A stretch of DNA of 47,554 nucleotides, taken from Escherichia coli. Its GTDB lineage: Bacteria > Pseudomonadota > Gammaproteobacteria > Enterobacterales > Enterobacteriaceae. The translations under genes were made by a program, and so were the position numbers. Location: NCBI RefSeq assembly GCF_003334385.1, contig NZ_QOWN01000034.1; one strand, 5' to 3'. A model generated the notes under the pieces. It was not told where the DNA came from and searched no databases. It worked only from the letters and a program-made list of their open reading frames with translations. Shown piece by piece: positions 1,300-32,169 of the stretch (positions are counted from its first letter, which is position 1; each line of letters begins with the position of its first letter).

Positions 1300-1387
1300 C
1301 TTTTTTAAATTGCCCCTAGATGAATGCACGGGCGGAGAGGAAATTCCCCTTCGCCCGTGTCAGTATAATTACCCGTTTATAGGGCGA

Positions 1388-3304
1388 TTATTTTTTGTCT
1401 TTGACTTCTTCAAATTCAGCGTCGACAACATCGTCATCTTTCGCGTTGTTTGCAGAAGCATCAGCACCGGCAGTCTGCTGCTGGGCATGTTGCTGCTGGG
1501 CGATTTCCATCAGTTTCTGGGAAACCTGTGCCAGCTCCTGCATTTTCGCTTCGATAGCGGCTTTGTCTTCACCTTTCAGAGCAGTTTCCAGTGCAGTCAG
1601 TGCAGACTCGATAGCAGTTTTGTCGTCAGCCGGCAGTTTGTCGCCTGCTTCTTCAACCTGCTTACGGGTGCTGTGCAGCAGATGGTCGCCCTGGTTGCGA
1701 GTCTGTACCAGCTCTTCAAACTTACGGTCAGCTTCGGCGTTAGCTTCTGCGTCGCGTACCATTTTCTGGATTTCATCTTCGTTCAGACCAGAAGACGCCT
1801 TGATGGTGATCTTCTGCTCTTTACCGCTGTTTTTATCTTTCGCGGAAACGTGCAGGATACCGTCAGCATCGATATCGAAGGTAACTTCGATCTGCGGCAT
1901 GCCGCGCGGTGCCGGGTTGATACCATCCAGGTTGAACTGACCCAGAGATTTGTTATCAGCCGCACGTTTACGTTCACCCTGCAGCACATGGATGGTTACC
2001 GCAGACTGGTTGTCTTCAGCGGTAGAGAACACCTGGCTGTGCTTGGTCGGGATAGTGGTGTTTTTCGCGATCAGCGTCGTCATCACACCGCCCATGGTTT
2101 CGATACCCAGAGACAGCGGGGTAACGTCCAGCAGCAGTACGTCTTTCACGTCACCAGTCAGAACACCACCCTGAACAGCAGCACCGATTGCTACAGCTTC
2201 GTCCGGGTTAACGTCTTTACGCGGCTCTTTACCAAAGAACTCAGCAACTTTCTTCTGAACCATTGGCATACGAGTCTGACCACCAACGAGGATAACGTCG
2301 TCGATATCAGATACGGACAGGCCAGCGTCCTGCAGTGCAACTTTCAGCGGCTCAATGGAACGGTTTACCAGATCTTCAACCAGGCTTTCCAGTTTCGCAC
2401 GAGTCACTTTGATGTTCATGTGTTTCGGACCGGTCGCATCTGCAGTGATGTACGGCAGGTTAACGTCGGTCTGCTGAGCGGAAGACAGTTCGATTTTCGC
2501 TTTTTCTGCCGCTTCTTTCAGGCGCTGCATTGCCAGCGGATCGTTGCGCAGGTCAATGCCCTGATCTTTCTTGAATTCTTCAACCAGGTAGTTGATCAGA
2601 CGGCTGTCGAAGTCTTCACCACCCAGGTGGGTATCACCGTTGGTAGCCAGAACTTCGAAGGTTTTTTCGCCGTCAACTTCGTCGATTTCGATAATAGAAA
2701 TATCGAAAGTACCACCACCCAGGTCATAAACCGCGATAGTACGGTTGCCAGTACCTTTGTCCAGACCGTAAGCCAGCGCAGCTGCGGTCGGTTCGTTGAT
2801 GATACGTTTTACTTCCAGACCAGCGATACGGCCTGCGTCTTTGGTTGCCTGACGCTGAGCATCGTTAAAGTATGCCGGTACGGTGATAACAGCTTCAGTT
2901 ACCGGTTCACCCAAGTAATCTTCAGCGGTTTTCTTCATTTTTTTCAGCACTTCAGCAGAAATCTGCGGCGGTGCCATTTTCTGGCCTTTAACTTCGACCC
3001 ATGCGTCGCCGTTATCAGCAGCAATAATTTTGAACGGCATGATGGAAACATCACGCTGTACTTCTTCGTCCTGGAAGCGGCGGCCAATCAGGCGTTTAAT
3101 CGCAAACAGGGTGTTTTGCGGGTTTGTCACTGCCTGACGTTTAGCCGGCTGACCAACCAGAGTTTCACCATCCTGGGTATAGGCAATGATAGAAGGCGTG
3201 GTGCGATCGCCTTCGGCGTTCTCCAGCACGCGAGGAGTGGTGCCATCCATAATCGCTACACAAGAGTTGGTAGTACCCAGGTCGATACCAATTATTTTAC
3301 CCAT
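1388..3304 (-). CDS. dnaK: Chaperone DnaK (Hsp70), 638 aa
   Basis: [21 protein letters not shown]... full-length Hsp70 ending EEVKDKK; 88-bp spacer to dnaJ. Confidence 0.98.
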
Positions 3305-3349
3305 CTAAACGTCTCCACTATATATTCGGTCATCATGTGGTTGTGAGTC

Positions 3350-3460
3350 TGTAATAGGGGCGAAACGTCTGGTTTCAACTGCCCAATTTCATTTTTTTGC
3401 AGACTCACTCACTGCGGTTGACTACTAAATGGGGTCGTAACCCACGTCATCAAGGGGGAG
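3350..3460 (-). promoter_or_regulatory. dnaK heat-shock (sigma32) promoters P1 and P2
   Basis: On the minus strand: CTTGATG -35 with CCCCATTTA -10 (plus coordinates ~3426-3454), and TTGAAA -35 with CCCCTATTA -10 (~3352-3378). Both match the sigma32 consensus CTTGAA / CCCCATnT. Confidence 0.6.
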
Positions 3461-3680
3461 ATGCAAAAATTTTTTGTGCTTTTGCGCAGAAATTTCGCGA
3501 TATGGCAGGACAAGACGTAAAATTGACAGCAATTTTATTCATATAAAGAATGAATCGCAGCCAAGGCATTCATCAAAAAATTGTAATAAAAAGAAAAGAT
3601 TACGTACCTGAATCTTCTCTTTATCAGCAGTAAACTAGTGGGTATTCATCCCTCTACCTCTTCCCACTAAGAGAATCCTT

Positions 3681-4085
3681 ATGAAATCCGTTTTTACGAT
3701 TTCCGCCAGCCTGGCGATTAGCCTGATGCTGTGCTGCACGGCGCAGGCAAACGACCATAAACTCCTCGGCGTCATTGCAATGCCGCGTAACGAAACCAAC
3801 GATCTGGCGCTGAAACTTCCTGTTTGTCGCATTGTGAAACGCATACAACTCTCTGCCGACCATGGCGATTTACAGTTAAGCGGTGCATCGGTTTATTTCA
3901 AAGCCGCCCGTAGCGCCAGTCAGAGTCTGAATATTCCTTCAGAAATAAAAGAAGGGCAAACCACTGACTGGATCAACATTAACAGTGATAACGACAATAA
4001 ACGCTGCGTCTCAAAAATCACCTTTTCCGGTCATACGGTGAACTCATCGGATATGGCCACGCTGAAAATTATCGGCGACGACTAA
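3681..4085 (+). CDS. yaaI: YaaI-family secreted protein (DUF2541), 134 aa
   Basis: N-terminal signal peptide [23 protein letters not shown]; size and position (between dnaK and yaaW) match K-12 yaaI. Confidence 0.85.
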
Positions 4086-4110
4086 CGCCAGAATATAGAA
4101 ACCACAAAAA

Positions 4111-4824
4111 ATGAATGTTAATTACCTGAATGATTCAGATCTGGATTTTCTTCAGCATTGTAGTGAGGAACAGTTGGCAAATTTCGCCCGATTGCTCACC
4201 CATAATGAAAAAGGCAAAACTCGCCTCTCCAGCGTACTGATGCGCAACGAACTGTTTAAATCGATGGAAGGGCATCCCGAGCAACATCGCCGCAACTGGC
4301 AGCTGATTGCTGGAGAATTACAGCATTTTGGTGGCGATAGTATCGCCAACAAACTGCGCGGACACGGTAAATTGTATCGGGCCATTTTGCTCGATGTTTC
4401 AAAACGATTGAAGCTGAAAGCCGACAAAGAGATGTCTACGTTTGAGATTGAGCAACAGTTACTGGAACAATTTCTGCGTAACACCTGGAAGAATATGGAC
4501 GAGAAACATAAGCAGGAGTTTCTGCACGCGGTCGATGCCAGGGTGAATGAGCTGGAAGAGCTGCTGCCGCTGCTGATGAAAGACAAATTATTGGCAAAAG
4601 GCGTGTCGCATTTGCTTTCCAGCCAACTGACCCGCATTTTACGCACCCACGCAGCAATGAGCGTGCTTGGGCATGGTTTGCTGCGCGGCGCGGGTCTGGG
4701 AGGCCCTGTGGGCGCAGCATTAAATGGGGTTAAAGCGGTCAGCGGCAGTGCCTATCGCGTGACAATTCCAGCCGTACTGCAAATCGCCTGCCTGCGCCGG
4801 ATGGTTAGCGCCACTCGGGTCTGA
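4111..4824 (+). CDS. yaaW: YaaW-family protein, 237 aa
   Basis: 237-aa ORF in the conserved position between yaaI and satP; translation matches YaaW as recalled. Confidence 0.85.
   Translation: MNVNYLNDSDLDFLQHCSEEQLANFARLLTHNEKGKTRLSSVLMRNELFKSMEGHPEQHRRNWQLIAGELQHFGGDSIANKLRGHGKLYRAILLDVSKRLKLKADKEMSTFEIEQQLLEQFLRNTWKNMDEKHKQEFLHAVDARVNELEELLPLLMKDKLLAKGVSHLLSSQLTRILRTHAAMSVLGHGLLRGAGLGGPVGAALNGVKAVSGSAYRVTIPAVLQIACLRRMVSATRV
4152..4637 (-). CDS. mbiA: Antisense ORF embedded in yaaW (htgA/mbiA-type), doubtful coding status
   Basis: 161-aa open frame on the opposite strand, wholly inside yaaW; coincides with the historically annotated htgA/mbiA ORF. Ser/Cys-rich, low-complexity translation. 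Confidence 0.3.
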   Translation of the reverse strand: MRVSWLESKCDTPFANNLSFISSGSSSSSSFTLASTACRNSCLCFSSIFFQVLRRNCSSNCCSISNVDISLSAFSFNRFETSSKMARYNLPCPRSLLAILSPPKCCNSPAISCQLRRCCSGCPSIDLNSSLRISTLERRVLPFSLWVSNRAKFANCSSLQC

Positions 4825-4972
4825 CACCGTAAACCGGGGAAAATTTTCATTTTCCCCTCAAAAGATCGTAGACACTGCCCCACTGGCTGATTATTATGCC
4901 GCGCCCTGAAAACACTACAGTTATTCAGGGAAATTATTTCACCATTCATTCGATGATGATTTTTGAGGAATT

Positions 4973-5539
4973 ATGGGCAACACTAAGTTGGCTAATCCGG
5001 CACCGCTGGGCCTGATGGGCTTCGGCATGACCACCATTCTGCTTAACCTGCACAACGTGGGTTATTTCGCTCTGGACGGTATTATTCTTGCCATGGGCAT
5101 TTTCTACGGCGGCATCGCGCAAATTTTTGCCGGTCTGCTGGAGTACAAAAAAGGCAACACTTTCGGTTTAACCGCATTCACCTCTTACGGTTCTTTCTGG
5201 CTGACGCTGGTTGCGATTCTGCTGATGCCGAAACTGGGTCTGACCGATGCGCCAAATGCACAGTTCCTTGGTGTCTACCTGGGTCTGTGGGGCGTATTTA
5301 CGCTGTTTATGTTCTTCGGCACGCTGAAAGGCGCACGCGTTCTGCAATTCGTTTTCTTTAGCCTGACCGTGCTGTTTGCCCTGCTGGCGATCGGTAACAT
5401 TGCCGGTAACGCCGCAATCATCCACTTTGCCGGCTGGATTGGTCTGATCTGCGGTGCCAGCGCAATCTATCTGGCGATGGGTGAAGTACTGAACGAGCAG
5501 TTTGGTCGCACCGTTCTGCCGATTGGTGAATCCCACTAA
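4973..5539 (+). CDS. satP: Succinate-acetate/proton symporter SatP (YaaH), 188 aa
   Basis: MGNTKLANPAPLGLMGFGMTTILLNLHNVGYF..., hydrophobic six-helix GPR1/FUN34/YaaH-family protein. Confidence 0.92.
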   Translation: MGNTKLANPAPLGLMGFGMTTILLNLHNVGYFALDGIILAMGIFYGGIAQIFAGLLEYKKGNTFGLTAFTSYGSFWLTLVAILLMPKLGLTDAPNAQFLGVYLGLWGVFTLFMFFGTLKGARVLQFVFFSLTVLFALLAIGNIAGNAAIIHFAGWIGLICGASAIYLAMGEVLNEQFGRTVLPIGESH

Positions 5540-6275: not shown

Positions 6276-7229
6276 TTACAGCAGATCGCCGATCATTTTT
6301 TCCAGTTTTTCCTGGTCAATAGCAAACTTACGGATACCTTCCGCCAGTTTATCTACTGCCATTGGATCCTGGTTGTGCTGCCACAGGAACTCGGACTCAG
6401 TGATACGCGCCGGACGCGCTTTCACTTCGCCGGTGTAAGACAGTTTACGTTCGATAGCCCCTTCGCTCTCAGCCAGCTCTTTCAGCAGTGTAGGTGCGAT
6501 GGTAAGACGGTCGCAGCCTGCCAGTTCCAGAATTTCGCCGATGTTACGGAAGCTTGCGCCCATAACCACGGTTTCATAACCGTGCTCTTTGTAGTACTGG
6601 TAGATTTCAGATACAGAAACCACGCCCGGATCTTCTGCCGGAGCGTACTCTTTCTTATCAGTATTCGCTTTGTACCAGTCAAGAATACGGCCAACAAATG
6701 GCGAGATCAGGAACACGCCTGCTTCCGCACAAGCACGAGCCTGAGCGAAGGAGAACAGCAGGGTCAGGTTACAGTTGATGCCTTCTTTTTCCAGCTGTTC
6801 TGCAGCACGGATACCCTGCCAGGTAGAAGCCAGTTTGATCAGAATACGATCGTTGCTAATACCAGCATCGTTGTAGAGTTTGATCAGGCGTTTTGCTTTC
6901 GCAATTGACGCTTCGGTGTCATAGGAAAGACGCGCATCAACTTCAGTTGAGATACGGCCCGGAACCAGTTTCAGGATTTCCAGACCAATATTTACTGCCA
7001 GTTTGTCGGTCGCGTCCACGATCTGCTGCGCGCGATCGTTGCTCTGCTGTTTCGCCCAGGCGACAGCATCATCAATCAACTTACGGTATTCCGGAATCTG
7101 CGCTGCGTTAAGAATGAGAGAAGGGTTGGTTGTGGCATCCTGCGGTTGATACAGCTTCATTGCCGCGATGTCCCCAGTGTCGGCCACTACGGTGGTGTAC
7201 TGACGAAGGGAGGTCAATTTGTCCGTCAT
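6276..7229 (-). CDS. talB: Transaldolase B, 317 aa
   Basis: [40 protein letters not shown]...; start trimmed to the internal ATG giving the 317-aa protein. Confidence 0.96.
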
Positions 7230-7507: not shown

Positions 7508-8938
7508 ATGCCAGATTTTTTCTCCTTTATTAACAGCGTCCTTTGGGGATCGGTAATGATTTACCTGCTCTTCGGCGCAGGTTGTTGGTTCACTTTTCGC
7601 ACCGGATTTGTGCAGTTTCGCTACATCCGCCAGTTTGGCAAAAGTCTTAAAAATAGCATTCATCCACAGCCAGGCGGTTTAACCTCATTTCAGTCATTGT
7701 GTACCAGTCTTGCGGCGCGCGTGGGTAGCGGCAACCTGGCCGGCGTTGCGCTGGCAATTACCGCCGGTGGACCTGGAGCCGTCTTTTGGATGTGGGTTGC
7801 CGCGTTTATCGGCATGGCGACCTCGTTTGCCGAATGTTCCCTTGCACAACTTTATAAAGAACGTGACGTCAATGGGCAGTTTCGTGGCGGACCGGCATGG
7901 TATATGGCGCGCGGGCTGGGGATGCGCTGGATGGGCGTTCTGTTCGCCGTCTTTTTGCTCATCGCCTACGGCATAATTTTCAGCGGAGTTCAGGCAAACG
8001 CAGTTGCCCGAGCCCTGAGTTTTTCTTTTGATTTTCCCCCGCTGGTGACAGGCATTATTCTCGCTGTCTTTGCTCTGCTGGCAATCACTCGCGGTCTTCA
8101 TGGCGTCGCCCGGCTCATGCAGGGTTTTGTCCCGTTGATGGCGATAATCTGGGTGCTGACCAGCATGGTGATTTGCGTAATAAATATCGGGCAACTTCCC
8201 CACGTCATTTGGTCTATTTTTGAGAGTGCTTTTGGCTGGCAGGAAGCGGCAGGCGGCGCGGCGGGATATACCTTAAGCCAGGCGATTACTAACGGTTTTC
8301 AGCGCAGTATGTTTTCCAATGAGGCGGGAATGGGTTCGACGCCAAACGCGGCTGCGGCAGCGGCGTCCTGGCCTCCGCATCCGGCAGCGCAAGGAATTGT
8401 CCAGATGATTGGCATTTTTATCGACACCCTGGTCATCTGTACGGCAAGCGCCATGCTGATATTACTGGCGGGTAACGGCACAACCTACATGCCGCTGGAA
8501 GGTATTCAGCTTATCCAGAAGGCGATGCGGGTGCTAATGGGTTCCTGGGGTGCTGAGTTTGTTACCCTCGTGGTTATTCTGTTTGCCTTCAGCTCCATCG
8601 TTGCCAACTACATTTATGCCGAAAACAATCTCTTCTTTTTACGCCTGAACAACCCTAAAGCGATCTGGTGTTTGCGGATCTGCACCTTCGCAACGGTCAT
8701 CGGCGGCACCTTGCTAAGTCTTCCGCTGATGTGGCAACTGGCAGATATCATAATGGCCTGCATGGCTATTACCAATTTGACCGCCATTTTACTGCTCTCG
8801 CCTGTGGTTCATACCATTGCCAGTGATTATCTACGCCAGCGTAAACTCGGCGTGCGCCCGGTGTTTGATCCGTTGCGTCATCCGGATATCGGCCGCCAGC
8901 TTTCTCCGGACGCGTGGGATGATGTTTCGCAGGAGTAA
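7508..8938 (+). CDS. yaaJ: Alanine/glycine:cation symporter (AGCS) family transporter, 476 aa
   Basis: Polytopic membrane protein of the AGCS family; conserved position divergent from talB. Confidence 0.9.
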   Translation: MPDFFSFINSVLWGSVMIYLLFGAGCWFTFRTGFVQFRYIRQFGKSLKNSIHPQPGGLTSFQSLCTSLAARVGSGNLAGVALAITAGGPGAVFWMWVAAFIGMATSFAECSLAQLYKERDVNGQFRGGPAWYMARGLGMRWMGVLFAVFLLIAYGIIFSGVQANAVARALSFSFDFPPLVTGIILAVFALLAITRGLHGVARLMQGFVPLMAIIWVLTSMVICVINIGQLPHVIWSIFESAFGWQEAAGGAAGYTLSQAITNGFQRSMFSNEAGMGSTPNAAAAAASWPPHPAAQGIVQMIGIFIDTLVICTASAMLILLAGNGTTYMPLEGIQLIQKAMRVLMGSWGAEFVTLVVILFAFSSIVANYIYAENNLFFLRLNNPKAIWCLRICTFATVIGGTLLSLPLMWQLADIIMACMAITNLTAILLLSPVVHTIASDYLRQRKLGVRPVFDPLRHPDIGRQLSPDAWDDVSQE

Positions 8939-10446: not shown

Positions 10447-11733
10447 TTACTGATGATTCATCATCAATTTACGCAACGCAGCAAAATCGGCGGGCAGATT
10501 ATGTGAAAGCAAGGGTAAATCAGCACGTTCTGCCAGCTCTTTTGGCAGATCCAACGTTTCACCGAGAATCGCTTCCACGCTCTCTTTAAATTTCGCCGGA
10601 TGCGCGGTGCCGAGGAACAAGCCATATTCGCCTGGATTCAACTGGTCACGCAGCGCACGATACGCTACGGCAGCGTGCGGCTCCGAAGTGTAGCCCAGTT
10701 CTTTTAACTCACGCATTGTCTGTTGCGTGGTTTCATCATCCACGGCTGCATAACCCAGCTCTTTCAGTTGCCAGATTTTGCGGCGGAACAACTCTTCCAC
10801 ACGCGGCCAGTTGTTCGGCTGACTCACGTCCATCGCGTTGGATAACGTCGCCTGAGTCGCTTTGGGTGACCACTGACCGTCGTGCAGGAAACGTGGCACG
10901 GTATCGTTCACGTTGGTCGCAGCAATAAAACGTTTCACCGGCAGACCGAGTGACTTCGCCAGCAGACCCGCCGTCAAATCGCCGAAGTTTCCGCTTGGCA
11001 CCGAGACAACCAGCCGGTTGCGCGCTTCCTGCGGCAGCTGCGCAACTGCTTCAAAGTAGTAGCAAATCTGCGCCAGCAAACGGCTGATGTTAATCGAGTT
11101 AGCTGAGTTTAACCCCAGCGCCACTTTCAGCTCTTCATCATCAAACGCCTGCTTCACCAGCGCCTGACAGGCATCGAAATCGCCGTCGATGGCAACAGTT
11201 TCGATATTGCCGCCCAATGTACAGAACAGTTTTTCTTGCAGTGGACTGATTTTGCCTCGTGGATAGAGGATAACCACTTTCACATTCGGTAAACCGTAGA
11301 AAGCATGAGCCACTGCCGCTCCGGTATCACCGGAGGTCGCGGTCAGAATGGTCACTGGCTTATCGCCCGCAATATGGGTCAGCATTTGTGCCATAAAGCG
11401 ACCGCCGAAATCTTTAAATGCCAGCGTTGGCCCGTGGAACAATTCCAGACAACCGACATCGCTTTCAACATTGGCGACCGGAGCCGGGAAGGCAAACGCC
11501 GCGCGCACGCGCTCTTCCAGGATTTCCTGCGGGATTTCATCACCAATAAACGCCGAGAGGATCTTCGCACTGCGGGTGACAAAATCCAGCTTCAGCATCT
11601 CATCAATTTCAGTCAGGCTGAATTCCGGCAGGTCGTGCGGAAAAAACAGCCCCTGATTTTTGCCCAACCCCTGGGTTACGGCTTGCGCAAAGCTGACCTG
11701 CTCATTGTGATCTTTCAGATTGTAGAGTTTCAT
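10447..11733 (-). CDS. thrC: Threonine synthase, 428 aa
   Basis: MKLYNLKDHNEQVSFAQAVTQGLGKNQGLFFP...; last gene of thrLABC. Confidence 0.97.
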   Translation of the reverse strand: MKLYNLKDHNEQVSFAQAVTQGLGKNQGLFFPHDLPEFSLTEIDEMLKLDFVTRSAKILSAFIGDEIPQEILEERVRAAFAFPAPVANVESDVGCLELFHGPTLAFKDFGGRFMAQMLTHIAGDKPVTILTATSGDTGAAVAHAFYGLPNVKVVILYPRGKISPLQEKLFCTLGGNIETVAIDGDFDACQALVKQAFDDEELKVALGLNSANSINISRLLAQICYYFEAVAQLPQEARNRLVVSVPSGNFGDLTAGLLAKSLGLPVKRFIAATNVNDTVPRFLHDGQWSPKATQATLSNAMDVSQPNNWPRVEELFRRKIWQLKELGYAAVDDETTQQTMRELKELGYTSEPHAAVAYRALRDQLNPGEYGLFLGTAHPAKFKESVEAILGETLDLPKELAERADLPLLSHNLPADFAALRKLMMNHQ

Positions 11734-16812: not shown

Positions 16813-17529
16813 ATGCAGACCCCGCACATTCTTATCGTTGAAGACGAGTTGGTAACACGCAACACGTTGAAAAGTATTTTCGAAGCGGAAGGCTATGATG
16901 TTTTCGAAGCGACAGATGGCGCGGAAATGCATCAGATCCTCTCTGAATATGACATCAACCTGGTGATCATGGATATCAATCTGCCGGGTAAGAACGGTCT
17001 TCTGTTAGCGCGTGAACTGCGCGAGCAGGCGAATGTTGCGTTGATGTTCCTGACTGGCCGTGACAACGAAGTCGATAAAATTCTCGGCCTCGAAATCGGT
17101 GCAGATGACTACATCACCAAACCGTTCAACCCGCGTGAACTGACTATTCGTGCACGCAACCTGCTGTCCCGTACCATGAATCTGGGTACTGTCAGCGAAG
17201 AACGTCGTAGCGTTGAAAGCTACAAGTTCAATGGTTGGGAACTGGACATCAACAGCCGTTCGTTGATCGGCCCTGATGGCGAGCAGTACAAGCTGCCGCG
17301 CAGCGAGTTCCGCGCCATGCTTCACTTCTGTGAAAACCCAGGCAAAATTCAGTCCCGTGCTGAACTGCTGAAGAAAATGACCGGCCGTGAGCTGAAACCA
17401 CACGACCGTACTGTAGACGTGACGATCCGCCGTATTCGTAAACATTTCGAATCTACGCCGGATACGCCGGAAATCATCGCCACCATCCACGGTGAAGGTT
17501 ATCGCTTCTGCGGTGATCTGGAAGATTAA
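16813..17529 (+). CDS. arcA: Aerobic respiration control response regulator ArcA, 238 aa
   Basis: [43 protein letters not shown]...; OmpR-family receiver plus winged-helix domains. Confidence 0.98.
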
Positions 17530-23978: not shown

Positions 23979-24320
<342 letters not shown>

Positions 24321-31200: not shown

Positions 31201-32169
31201 TTACTTCTGATTCAGGCTGCCTGAGAGGATGCAGAATACCCCCATCAGGTCAGCGTGACGGATGGTGACTTCCGCCTTTTCATTCACTTTTGGCTTGGCA
31301 TGGTAGGCAATCCCCAGCCCTGCCGCTTTGATCATCGGCAGGTCATTGGCTCCATCGCCAATCGCCACGGTCTGCGCCAGCAGGATTTCATACTCCTGCG
31401 CGAGGCGAGTCAGAGTTTTCGCTTTGTACTGCGCGTCTACGATGTCGCCGATCACATTGCCGGTAAATTTACCGTCCATGATCTCCAGTTCATTGGCTAC
31501 CACGGCGGTCAGGCGCAACTTGTCGCGCAGATATTCAGCAAAGAAAGTAAAGCCGCCGGAGGCAATCGCCACTTTCCAGCCCAGCGTTTCCAGCTTGAGC
31601 ACCAGTTGCGTTAAGCCTGGCATCAGCGGCAGATTTTCACGCACCTGTTGCAGAATATTGGCGTCAGCGCCTTTCAGCGTCGCCACGCGGCTGCGCAGGC
31701 TGGCGGTAAAATCGAGTTCGCCGCGCATCGCCCGTTCGGTTACTTCCGCCACCATCTCGCCCGTTCCGGCCAGTTTGGCAATTTCATCAATACATTCAAT
31801 CTGGATGGCGGTGGAATCCATGTCCATCACCAGCAAACCCGGCGTGCGCAGGTGCGGGATTTTCCCCAGCGGGGCGACATCCAGTTGCGCTTCATGGGCC
31901 AGGCGCGTAGCCCGTGCGGTGAGTGAACCTGCCAGACGAATCACCTGATAATCTTCCACGCACCAGGCGGCAACAATCACCATCGCCGCACCCAGTTTGC
32001 TCTGGTATTGGGTCAGACGCTGTTTATCCAGCCCACGACCATACAGCAGCCAGCCGCTACGACCTGCGTGGTAATCCAGTGGCATCACTTCATCACCACT
32101 TAATGAAAGAGGCAGACCCGGCCATAAAGAGACATCTTCAGGCAGGTCGCACCAGGTAATGTTAGGCAT
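31201..32169 (-). CDS. serB: Phosphoserine phosphatase, 322 aa
   Basis: MPNITWCDLPEDVSLWPGLPLSLSGDEVMPLDYHAGRSG...; HAD motif DMDST. Confidence 0.95.
   Translation of the reverse strand: MPNITWCDLPEDVSLWPGLPLSLSGDEVMPLDYHAGRSGWLLYGRGLDKQRLTQYQSKLGAAMVIVAAWCVEDYQVIRLAGSLTARATRLAHEAQLDVAPLGKIPHLRTPGLLVMDMDSTAIQIECIDEIAKLAGTGEMVAEVTERAMRGELDFTASLRSRVATLKGADANILQQVRENLPLMPGLTQLVLKLETLGWKVAIASGGFTFFAEYLRDKLRLTAVVANELEIMDGKFTGNVIGDIVDAQYKAKTLTRLAQEYEILLAQTVAIGDGANDLPMIKAAGLGIAYHAKPKVNEKAEVTIRHADLMGVFCILSGSLNQK

Follow-up and report, generated by a model that had tools for sequence, protein, structure and literature searches.

The antisense frame mbiA/htgA within Escherichia coli yaaW is probably an unconstrained by-product of its host gene

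The window analysed here (the whole stretch of 47,554 nucleotides of E. coli DNA) contains, on the strand opposite to yaaW, an open frame of 161 codons that is real and already known; it is the published and disputed gene mbiA/htgA. The htgA/mbiA-yaaW pair is a textbook example of bacterial de novo gene birth by overprinting. From the present analysis, mbiA is probably an unconstrained shadow ORF, which the loss of a single obligatory stop opened in Escherichia, which has been drifting ever since and which is at best a dispensable proto-gene. Since its length falls within the range of chance, its protein bears no mark of selection and stops interrupt it in at least 7% of the E. coli genomes, the frame is most likely a by-product of yaaW.

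The gene neighbourhood is that of E. coli dnaK-yaaI-yaaW-satP-mog, on the strand opposite to the K-12 numbering. All but one of the 5,426 complete E. coli genomes (5,425) match the 951 bases around the ORF, with an identity of 99.8% for strain S1 and of 97.9% for K-12, and the window comes from a non-K-12 source with gene neighbours identical to those of K-12. The features of the pair are the following.

Positions 4111 to 4824, plus strand: the yaaW coding sequence, 237 aa, taken from the ORF listing and direct translation; b0011 in K-12.
Positions 4152 to 4637, minus strand: the antisense ORF, 161 aa from the ATG at 4637, which corresponds to K-12 position 10830, wholly within yaaW; mbiA (b0012; older names htgA and htpY).
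Positions 4638 to 4751, minus strand: the upstream extension of the open frame; a GTG lies at 4646-4644, and a longer htgA was once annotated as starting in this region.
Positions 4548 to 4574, minus strand: an SSGSSSSSS run of the antisense product, mirroring GAG CTG GAA GAG CTG CTG CCG CTG CTG (E-L-E-E-L-L-P-L-L) of yaaW.
Positions 4324 to 4329, plus strand: the His72-Phe73 codons of yaaW (CAT TTT); in Salmonella, Citrobacter and the other outgroups with a yaaW of equal length, the equivalent is His-Tyr (CAT TAY).

The initial annotation had placed a 161-aa minus-strand frame at 4152-4637, wholly inside yaaW, and had equated it with the htgA/mbiA of K-12; the ORF listing and translation confirm the former, and the K-12 record the latter. 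In the MG1655 RefSeq entry, yaaW (b0011) is accompanied by mbiA (b0012), which lies inside it on the opposite strand as a 161-aa 'uncharacterized protein MbiA'. The product of the window is identical to K-12 MbiA (YP_009518733.1) at 160 of 161 residues (E = 3e-112), with Ser45Phe as the single substitution, the same ATG and the same TGA, and nothing else of substance differs. The ORF is absent from the annotation in the PGAP-annotated genomes fetched for comparison. When read from the GTG at 4646 it has 164 aa, and from stop to stop the frame measures 199 codons, with the upstream in-frame stop at 4752-4754. Antisense codon position 3 faces position 3 of yaaW, a phase known in the literature as '-2' or '123/213'. 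The real and conserved gene of the pair is yaaW, whose protein contains the Pfam domains DUF3944 and Ubiq_cyt_C_chap and whose crude nonsynonymous/synonymous rate ratio of 0.05 in Escherichia indicates strong constraint.

The length of mbiA is not statistically unusual. We have resampled the synonymous codons of YaaW from the codon usage of the window, or shuffled them within the gene, and an ATG-initiated ORF of at least 161 codons appeared in the mbiA phase in 10% and 15% of the trials, respectively (P = 0.10-0.15, conditional on the YaaW sequence). For open runs of 199 codons or more, the corresponding frequencies were 7% and 10%. The simulated antisense frame of yaaW had 3.7-3.9 stops on average, versus 3 observed. 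The initial annotation had held long antisense frames at one locus to be rare by chance, a premise that the window itself contradicts, since it has seven nested antisense ORFs that reach 161 aa or more, in addition to a 678-aa ORF (1310-3346, plus strand) that spans dnaK (1388-3304, minus strand) and indicates that very long antisense frames arise easily. Of the 41 window ORFs, 11 have an in-phase antisense run that stays open for 161 codons or more, and 3 have such a run in the mbiA-like phase. The antisense frame of yaaW covers a fraction of 0.84 of its host, the highest value for its phase within the window (the next is 0.68); this coverage belongs to the upper tail of the distribution and is not an outlier.

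In the mbiA phase an antisense stop requires a sense dicodon NNY-TAN or NNT-CAN, and a risk therefore exists only before Tyr, His or Gln. YaaW has 25 such at-risk dicodons, 19 of them within the ORF, and 11 of these 19 are immune because they follow Glu, Gln, Lys or Trp, none of which has a codon with T or C in third position. The other eight jointly escape a stop with a probability of about 12% under ordinary codon usage. The 161 codons would be a by-product of the YaaW sequence and the genetic code, and not a frame maintained for a protein of its own.

The codon usage of the ORF is that of a shadow. In a log-likelihood comparison of genes with their frame -2 shadows (leave-one-out on the window), mbiA scored -0.56 bits per codon, where shadow frames score -0.46 ± 0.18 and real genes +0.50 ± 0.20; as a control, the same statistic correctly chose trpR over its longer antisense ORF. 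The translation is Ser/Cys-rich and of low complexity, as had been remarked at the outset, with 23% Ser, 10.6% Leu and 9.9% Cys in addition to the SSGSSSSSS run. The same antisense frame of the other 40 window ORFs contains 17% Ser and 3.6% Cys, and the Ser/Cys richness is largely generic to the frame. That such a composition argues against a folded protein is consistent with the AlphaFold2 prediction from the single sequence, which has a pLDDT of 28, no confident fold and no secondary structure. Sequence searches of Pfam, NCBIfam and the PDB with the antisense product returned no match. Among 5.8 billion proteins, three clusters were retrieved, of which one, with 14 members, is genuine. Clusters P0002 and P0003 were rejected as homologues: their source assemblies also have dnaK and satP in pieces, and both clusters are therefore frameshift artefacts.

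We have also followed the frame through relatives, fetching yaaW from 17 species-representative genomes and from another 18 of E. coli. No stop interrupts the frame in E. coli (nonsense alleles aside), in L003 and L004, two cryptic Escherichia clades about 11% diverged from the window, or in E. whittamii over the portion of the gene available. E. albertii has a stop at mbiA codon 146. The ORF is interrupted by 2-4 stops, and the whole yaaW antisense frame by 5-8, in Salmonella, three Citrobacter, Pseudescherichia vulneris, 'Escherichia sp. ESNIH1' and one genome of an uncultured Enterobacteriaceae; in four Kluyvera genomes the whole frame has 7-9. The longest antisense open runs outside Escherichia reach 59-102 codons in the sampled relatives. 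As far as these sequences go, the frame is open only in Escherichia among the genera sampled, in agreement with the proposal of Delaye et al. (2008, PMC2268670) that htgA is an overprinting product of the E. coli/Shigella lineage.

One stop, at mbiA codon 104, is common to all outgroups with a yaaW of the same length, and it is obligatory there, being dictated by His72-Tyr73 (CAY TAY). Escherichia has Phe73 in place of Tyr73, so that this stop is gone and the frame is open. The comparison shows that Phe73 opened the frame that His72-Tyr73 keeps closed in the same-length relatives, and we infer that the direction of change was Tyr73Phe. The antisense translations of Salmonella and Citrobacter still visibly resemble 'MbiA' despite their stops, which means that similarity in this frame only echoes the conservation of YaaW. 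In frame -2, conservation can arise purely as an artefact when selection acts on the main frame (PMC4182739), and the apparent conservation of MbiA would likewise mirror purifying selection on YaaW.

Within E. coli, the frame is interrupted or reshaped by three alleles.

Position 4320: a nonsense allele, A>T, which replaces Leu70 of yaaW by Phe and turns the Cys106 codon of mbiA (TGC) into TGA; seen in CFT073.
Position 4200: a yaaW-silent nonsense allele, C>T (Thr30, ACC>ACT), which changes mbiA Trp146 (TGG) to TGA.
Positions 4152 to 4154, minus strand: the polymorphic TGA stop codon of mbiA; base 4152 is T in the window (yaaW Leu14, CTT).

Alleles were counted in the 5,426 complete E. coli genomes with 36-base queries to which megablast can find a match only where the variant base occurs. 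The 4320 A>T allele was found in 154 genomes, Nissle 1917 and ATCC 25922 among them, and the 4200 C>T allele in 248, with an identical change in E. albertii. In strain 7/2, which carries 4200 C>T, the YaaW protein is the same as in open-frame strains. These carriers amount to a truncated ORF in at least 402 of the 5,426 genomes (at least 7.4%), with an intact one in about 93%. The initial annotation had regarded stops in close relatives with a conserved yaaW as telling against the antisense gene, and such stops are present in E. albertii, in every non-Escherichia genome sampled and in the E. coli carriers, all with YaaW intact. The stop codon varies as well: the C allele at 4152 (Leu14 CTC, synonymous in yaaW) converts TGA to TGG and gives a 171-aa ORF that ends at 4122-4124. 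This longer form is carried by 3,857 of the 5,426 genomes (71%) and the 161-aa form (T allele) by 1,500 (28%); the minority form is shared by the window strain and K-12. Three other yaaW-silent alleles that would create a stop, at Ser171 AGT (in two backgrounds), Gly54 GGT and Gly84 GGT, were not found in the 5,426 genomes. In the scenario that we favour, the frame has drifted: its stop codon toggles with a yaaW-silent T/C polymorphism, and mutations silent or conservative in yaaW have truncated it in E. albertii and in entire lineages of E. coli. A nonsense mutation in the htgA of one strain had already been noted (PMC2268670).

No protein-level constraint on MbiA is detectable. Every possible single-base change in the ORF region was classed by its effect in both frames, and the classes were compared among 23 Escherichia sequences. 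Among the yaaW-synonymous transitions, 19 of 29 possible MbiA-altering changes and 64 of 149 changes silent in both frames were seen (ratio 1.5), and among the transversions 11 of 73 and 8 of 61 (ratio 1.15), in a test that tallies variable alleles rather than tree events, with n = 23, and may miss weak or very recent selection. The Mantel-Haenszel odds ratio for MbiA-altering versus doubly silent changes was 1.84. The corresponding ratios in outgroups with a broken frame were 1.0 and 1.25, and a conditional omega of 0.5 or less was rejected (p = 4e-7 and 0.008). Thus, the constraint that conservation and dN/dS across Escherichia might have disclosed, as the initial annotation had proposed to check, was not found, and MbiA-altering changes were not depleted among the yaaW-synonymous ones in these 23 sequences. 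Amino-acid-changing substitutions build up in mbiA as fast as silent ones. With the rates of the matching mutation classes, constraint on yaaW alone predicts 2.0 stop-creating changes, and 2 were observed (1 without CFT073, a deliberate addition to the sample); the mbiA frame does not have fewer stops than neutral drift predicts.

Synonymous divergence in Escherichia is 0.26-0.31 inside the ORF versus 0.40-0.49 in the 3′ part of yaaW, and it is flat in the outgroups. When satP serves as the local clock, the rate of the ORF region is 1.5-2.0 times that of satP in Escherichia and 1.3-1.7 times in the outgroups, and the rate of the remainder of yaaW is 2.1-3.1 times that of satP in Escherichia versus 1.05-1.5 times in the outgroups. 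It is therefore the 3′ end of yaaW that is accelerated in Escherichia; the ORF region is not slowed. The low synonymous divergence inside the ORF was rejected as a sign of constraint on two grounds: the depleted changes are not the MbiA-altering ones, and the rate of the ORF region relative to satP is the same in Escherichia as in the outgroups.

Two candidate expression signals lie upstream of the ATG.

Positions 4644 to 4648, minus strand: a Shine-Dalgarno-like GGGTG, 6 nt upstream of the ATG, with a predicted duplex of -3.9 kcal/mol with the 16S 3′ end.
Positions 4722 to 4729, minus strand: CCCCATTT, which fits the sigma-32 -10 consensus, 85 nt upstream of the ATG and without an acceptable -35 element.

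The GGGTG equals the median strength of the window ORF starts and ranks in the top 19% of intragenic ATGs, and it is non-discriminating. Consensus scans (one of them relaxed) of the minus strand upstream of the ORF detected neither a sigma-70 consensus promoter nor a complete one for sigma-32, and an Rfam scan of 3300-5100 returned a chance hit only and no family.

The coding status of mbiA is debated, as the initial annotation had stated. The existence of htgA has been called controversial, with a re-annotated start codon and a reported lack of sigma-32 induction (PMC2268670); the shift of the annotated start is described there and in PMC3194237, and htgA was once dropped from annotation over conflicting data (Mir et al. 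2012, PMC3454372). PMC2268670 credits Missiakas 1993 with cloning htgA, probing it on Northern blots, labelling its protein and mapping a promoter, and an intragenic promoter of the pair has been reported active in vitro (PMC2731890). Fellner et al. 2014 reportedly renamed the gene mbiA and described a phenotype for a strand-specific mutant; the 4200 C>T allele of 248 genomes is a natural counterpart of a mutation that arrests mbiA and is silent in yaaW. A bioRxiv study (10.1101/2020.11.18.388249) cites Fellner 2014 and names mbiA/yaaW among overlapping pairs 'verified by demonstrating a phenotype'; among the rows listed in its supplements, mbiA appears only in a BLAST homology table. Should the frame be transcribed and translated at all, as the older reports state, MbiA would most likely be a peptide of low abundance that is unstructured and dispensable.

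The principal alternative is that mbiA is a genuine and very young gene, which arose by overprinting of yaaW in the ancestor of Escherichia. Its translation would begin at the ATG at 4637, its product would modulate biofilm formation or metabolism, selection on it would have been too weak or too recent to mark the substitution patterns, and some lineages would have lost it secondarily. We regard this as possible but unlikely. It accords with the K-12 RefSeq record, which still lists mbiA as a protein, with an ORF open in all sampled Escherichia bar E. albertii and two E. coli lineages, and with the average-strength Shine-Dalgarno-like element. The Escherichia-only dip in synonymous divergence inside the ORF relative to the 3′ end of yaaW is the pattern that Delaye et al. 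read as constraint, having noted that yaaW evolves more slowly in its overlap with htgA (PMC2268670); this slower rate speaks for the young gene together with the labelling and Northern data cited there, as does the phenotype-verified listing in the bioRxiv text. However, the dip loses its force when the rate of the ORF region relative to satP is equal in Escherichia and the outgroups, and the conditional omega of about 1.2-1.5 is as high as where the frame is broken. The stop count matches the neutral expectation, and at least 7.4% of the complete genomes are natural knock-outs, including the successful lineages of Nissle 1917, CFT073 and ATCC 25922. A C-terminus that varies between 161 and 171 aa, shadow-like codon usage and a product with 23% Ser, 10% Cys and no predicted structure also count against a gene, as do the past removal of htgA from annotation (PMC3454372) and its reported lack of sigma-32 induction (PMC2268670). 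A related and, in our view, doubtful reading is that mbiA is a segregating proto-gene between birth and death, translated and mildly beneficial in most E. coli, with 161- and 171-aa isoforms set by the yaaW-silent T/C difference and with independent knock-outs in the CFT073/Nissle 1917 group and the 248-genome group. Were it true, the natural alleles would be a ready-made test of de novo gene function with the host gene untouched.

It may also be that antisense transcription matters and the protein does not. An RNA running from the 3′ part of yaaW toward yaaI and dnaK would interfere or form a duplex with yaaI-yaaW expression, the ORF would be incidental, and the htgA/mbiA phenotypes would reflect altered expression of yaaW or of the region upstream of dnaK. 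The ORF has the direction of dnaK and ends 848 bp upstream of the dnaK start codon, and htgA was reportedly first found (Dean and James in 1991, Missiakas in 1993) via high-temperature growth defects linked to dnaK. Fellner and co-workers reportedly saw no heat-shock role and an increase in biofilm in mbiA-arrested and yaaW-arrested mutants alike, which, if so, could reflect an effect exerted through yaaW. The promoter activity reported in vitro inside htgA/yaaW (PMC2731890) and the sigma-32 -10-like CCCCATTT upstream of the ATG also speak for this reading. This explanation nevertheless appears very unlikely, as the minus strand upstream of the ORF offers neither a consensus sigma-70 nor a complete sigma-32 promoter in the scans made, the locus matches no Rfam family, and the substitution pattern singles out no RNA element.

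A shadow of yaaW thus being the preferred reading, the unremarkable length, the YaaW-echo conservation and the natural truncation in hundreds of genomes advise caution on the K-12 mbiA entry, and also on inferring function from antisense-frame conservation generally. No new kind of biology is implied. In practical terms, the natural nonsense and stop-loss alleles that are silent in yaaW now allow an old question to be tested directly.

Among known systems, mbiA may be compared with the E. coli O157:H7 genes nog1/citC, pop/ompA, asa, laoB and ano, which are likewise embedded, wholly or for the most part, antisense in a conserved 'mother' gene, taxonomically restricted and proposed to derive from overprinting (PMC4683798, PMC7103648, PMC6294744, PMC5810103 and PMC5960689). 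Those genes are backed there by RNA-seq and ribosome profiling; for mbiA, the literature consulted yielded no ribosome-profiling evidence. In length, codons and constraint mbiA resembles the non-coding shadow ORFs, long antisense frames that codon usage generates (Merino 1994; Silke 1997; PMC3454372), which have an expected length, codons and composition typical of their frame, and no independent constraint. Unlike most of these, mbiA has past experimental claims and a database entry to its name, and it occupies the -2 frame, whereas most long shadow ORFs are found in the in-phase (-1) frame. For its part, yaaW is not known to be highly expressed. The antiparallel ORFs of hsp70/dnaK lie in the in-phase frame and have been attributed to the codon bias of highly expressed genes (PMC3454372).

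Nested antisense frames are common in the window, as is shown by six further ORFs (161-270 aa) that lie within longer ORFs, besides the one spanning dnaK. Judging by the K-12 gene order, their likely hosts are dnaK, talB, yaaJ, arcA, serB and one more gene.

1395-1940, plus strand, nested antisense ORF
6375-6908, plus strand, nested antisense ORF
7694-8203, minus strand, nested antisense ORF
17005-17490, minus strand, nested antisense ORF
31328-31948, plus strand, nested antisense ORF
35353-36165, plus strand, nested antisense ORF

The longest of the window's many antisense ORFs is the one opposite dnaK, which is free of stops at all 639 codons in the in-phase antisense frame. This ORF resembles the long antiparallel ORFs that have been described for hsp70 genes.

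1310-3346, plus strand, antisense ORF of 678 aa, spanning all of dnaK
1388-3304, minus strand, dnaK, its host

At the trpR locus, the antisense ORF partially overlaps the gene and is longer than it, and a longest-ORF rule there selects the wrong strand. On the codon log-likelihood ratio (bits per codon), the antisense ORF scored -0.36 and trpR +0.40, so this statistic points to the correct strand.

23979-24305, minus strand, trpR, 108 aa
23872-24219, plus strand, antisense ORF, 115 aa

Two of the protein clusters matching MbiA, P0002 and P0003, were rejected as homologues, being chimeric frames from indel-ridden assemblies; in the contigs carrying them (L036 and L037), dnaK and satP are likewise broken up. 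They are a reminder that rare matches to an orphan protein can stem from assembly artefacts.

The orthologue of YaaW, which is encoded at 4111-4824 in the window, is named 'msyB: acidic protein MsyB' in RefSeq/PGAP genomes (loci L002, L020-L035 and L038), a label whose source is NCBIfam NF007593 (PRK10236). The true MsyB is the 124-aa product of K-12 b1051 and matches a separate model, NF008544; a BLASTP comparison of YaaW with it revealed no relation (E = 2.4), and the net charge of YaaW is +8. NF007593 thus looks like a mislabelled model whose label has spread to thousands of genomes.

In E. coli SMN152SH1 (L021), yaaW is annotated as frameshifted and the locus is 4 bases shorter, while in strain PS2Canimalfeces12 (H30) the gene is split by an IS1 insertion. 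Since it is occasionally disrupted in this way, some backgrounds can apparently do without yaaW. In the GTDB representative labelled E. coli SCPM-O-B-8794 (L003), yaaW differs from that of the window at 77 of 714 positions (10.8%), and is as distant as that of the cryptic-clade genome L004 (81 differences). Judged by this yaaW divergence, L003, although titled Escherichia coli, is therefore probably a cryptic Escherichia lineage rather than E. coli proper.

Upstream of yaaW, the 25-nt gap from the yaaI stop to the yaaW start (4086-4110) is an A-rich leader in which nothing matches a Shine-Dalgarno sequence (duplex energy +0.2 kcal/mol). Between yaaW and satP lies an inverted repeat that lacks a T-run; this repeat may serve as a terminator or as a binding site for a protein.

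4836-4857, 3' of yaaW, perfect 9-bp inverted repeat GGGGAAAAT-TTTC-ATTTTCCCC
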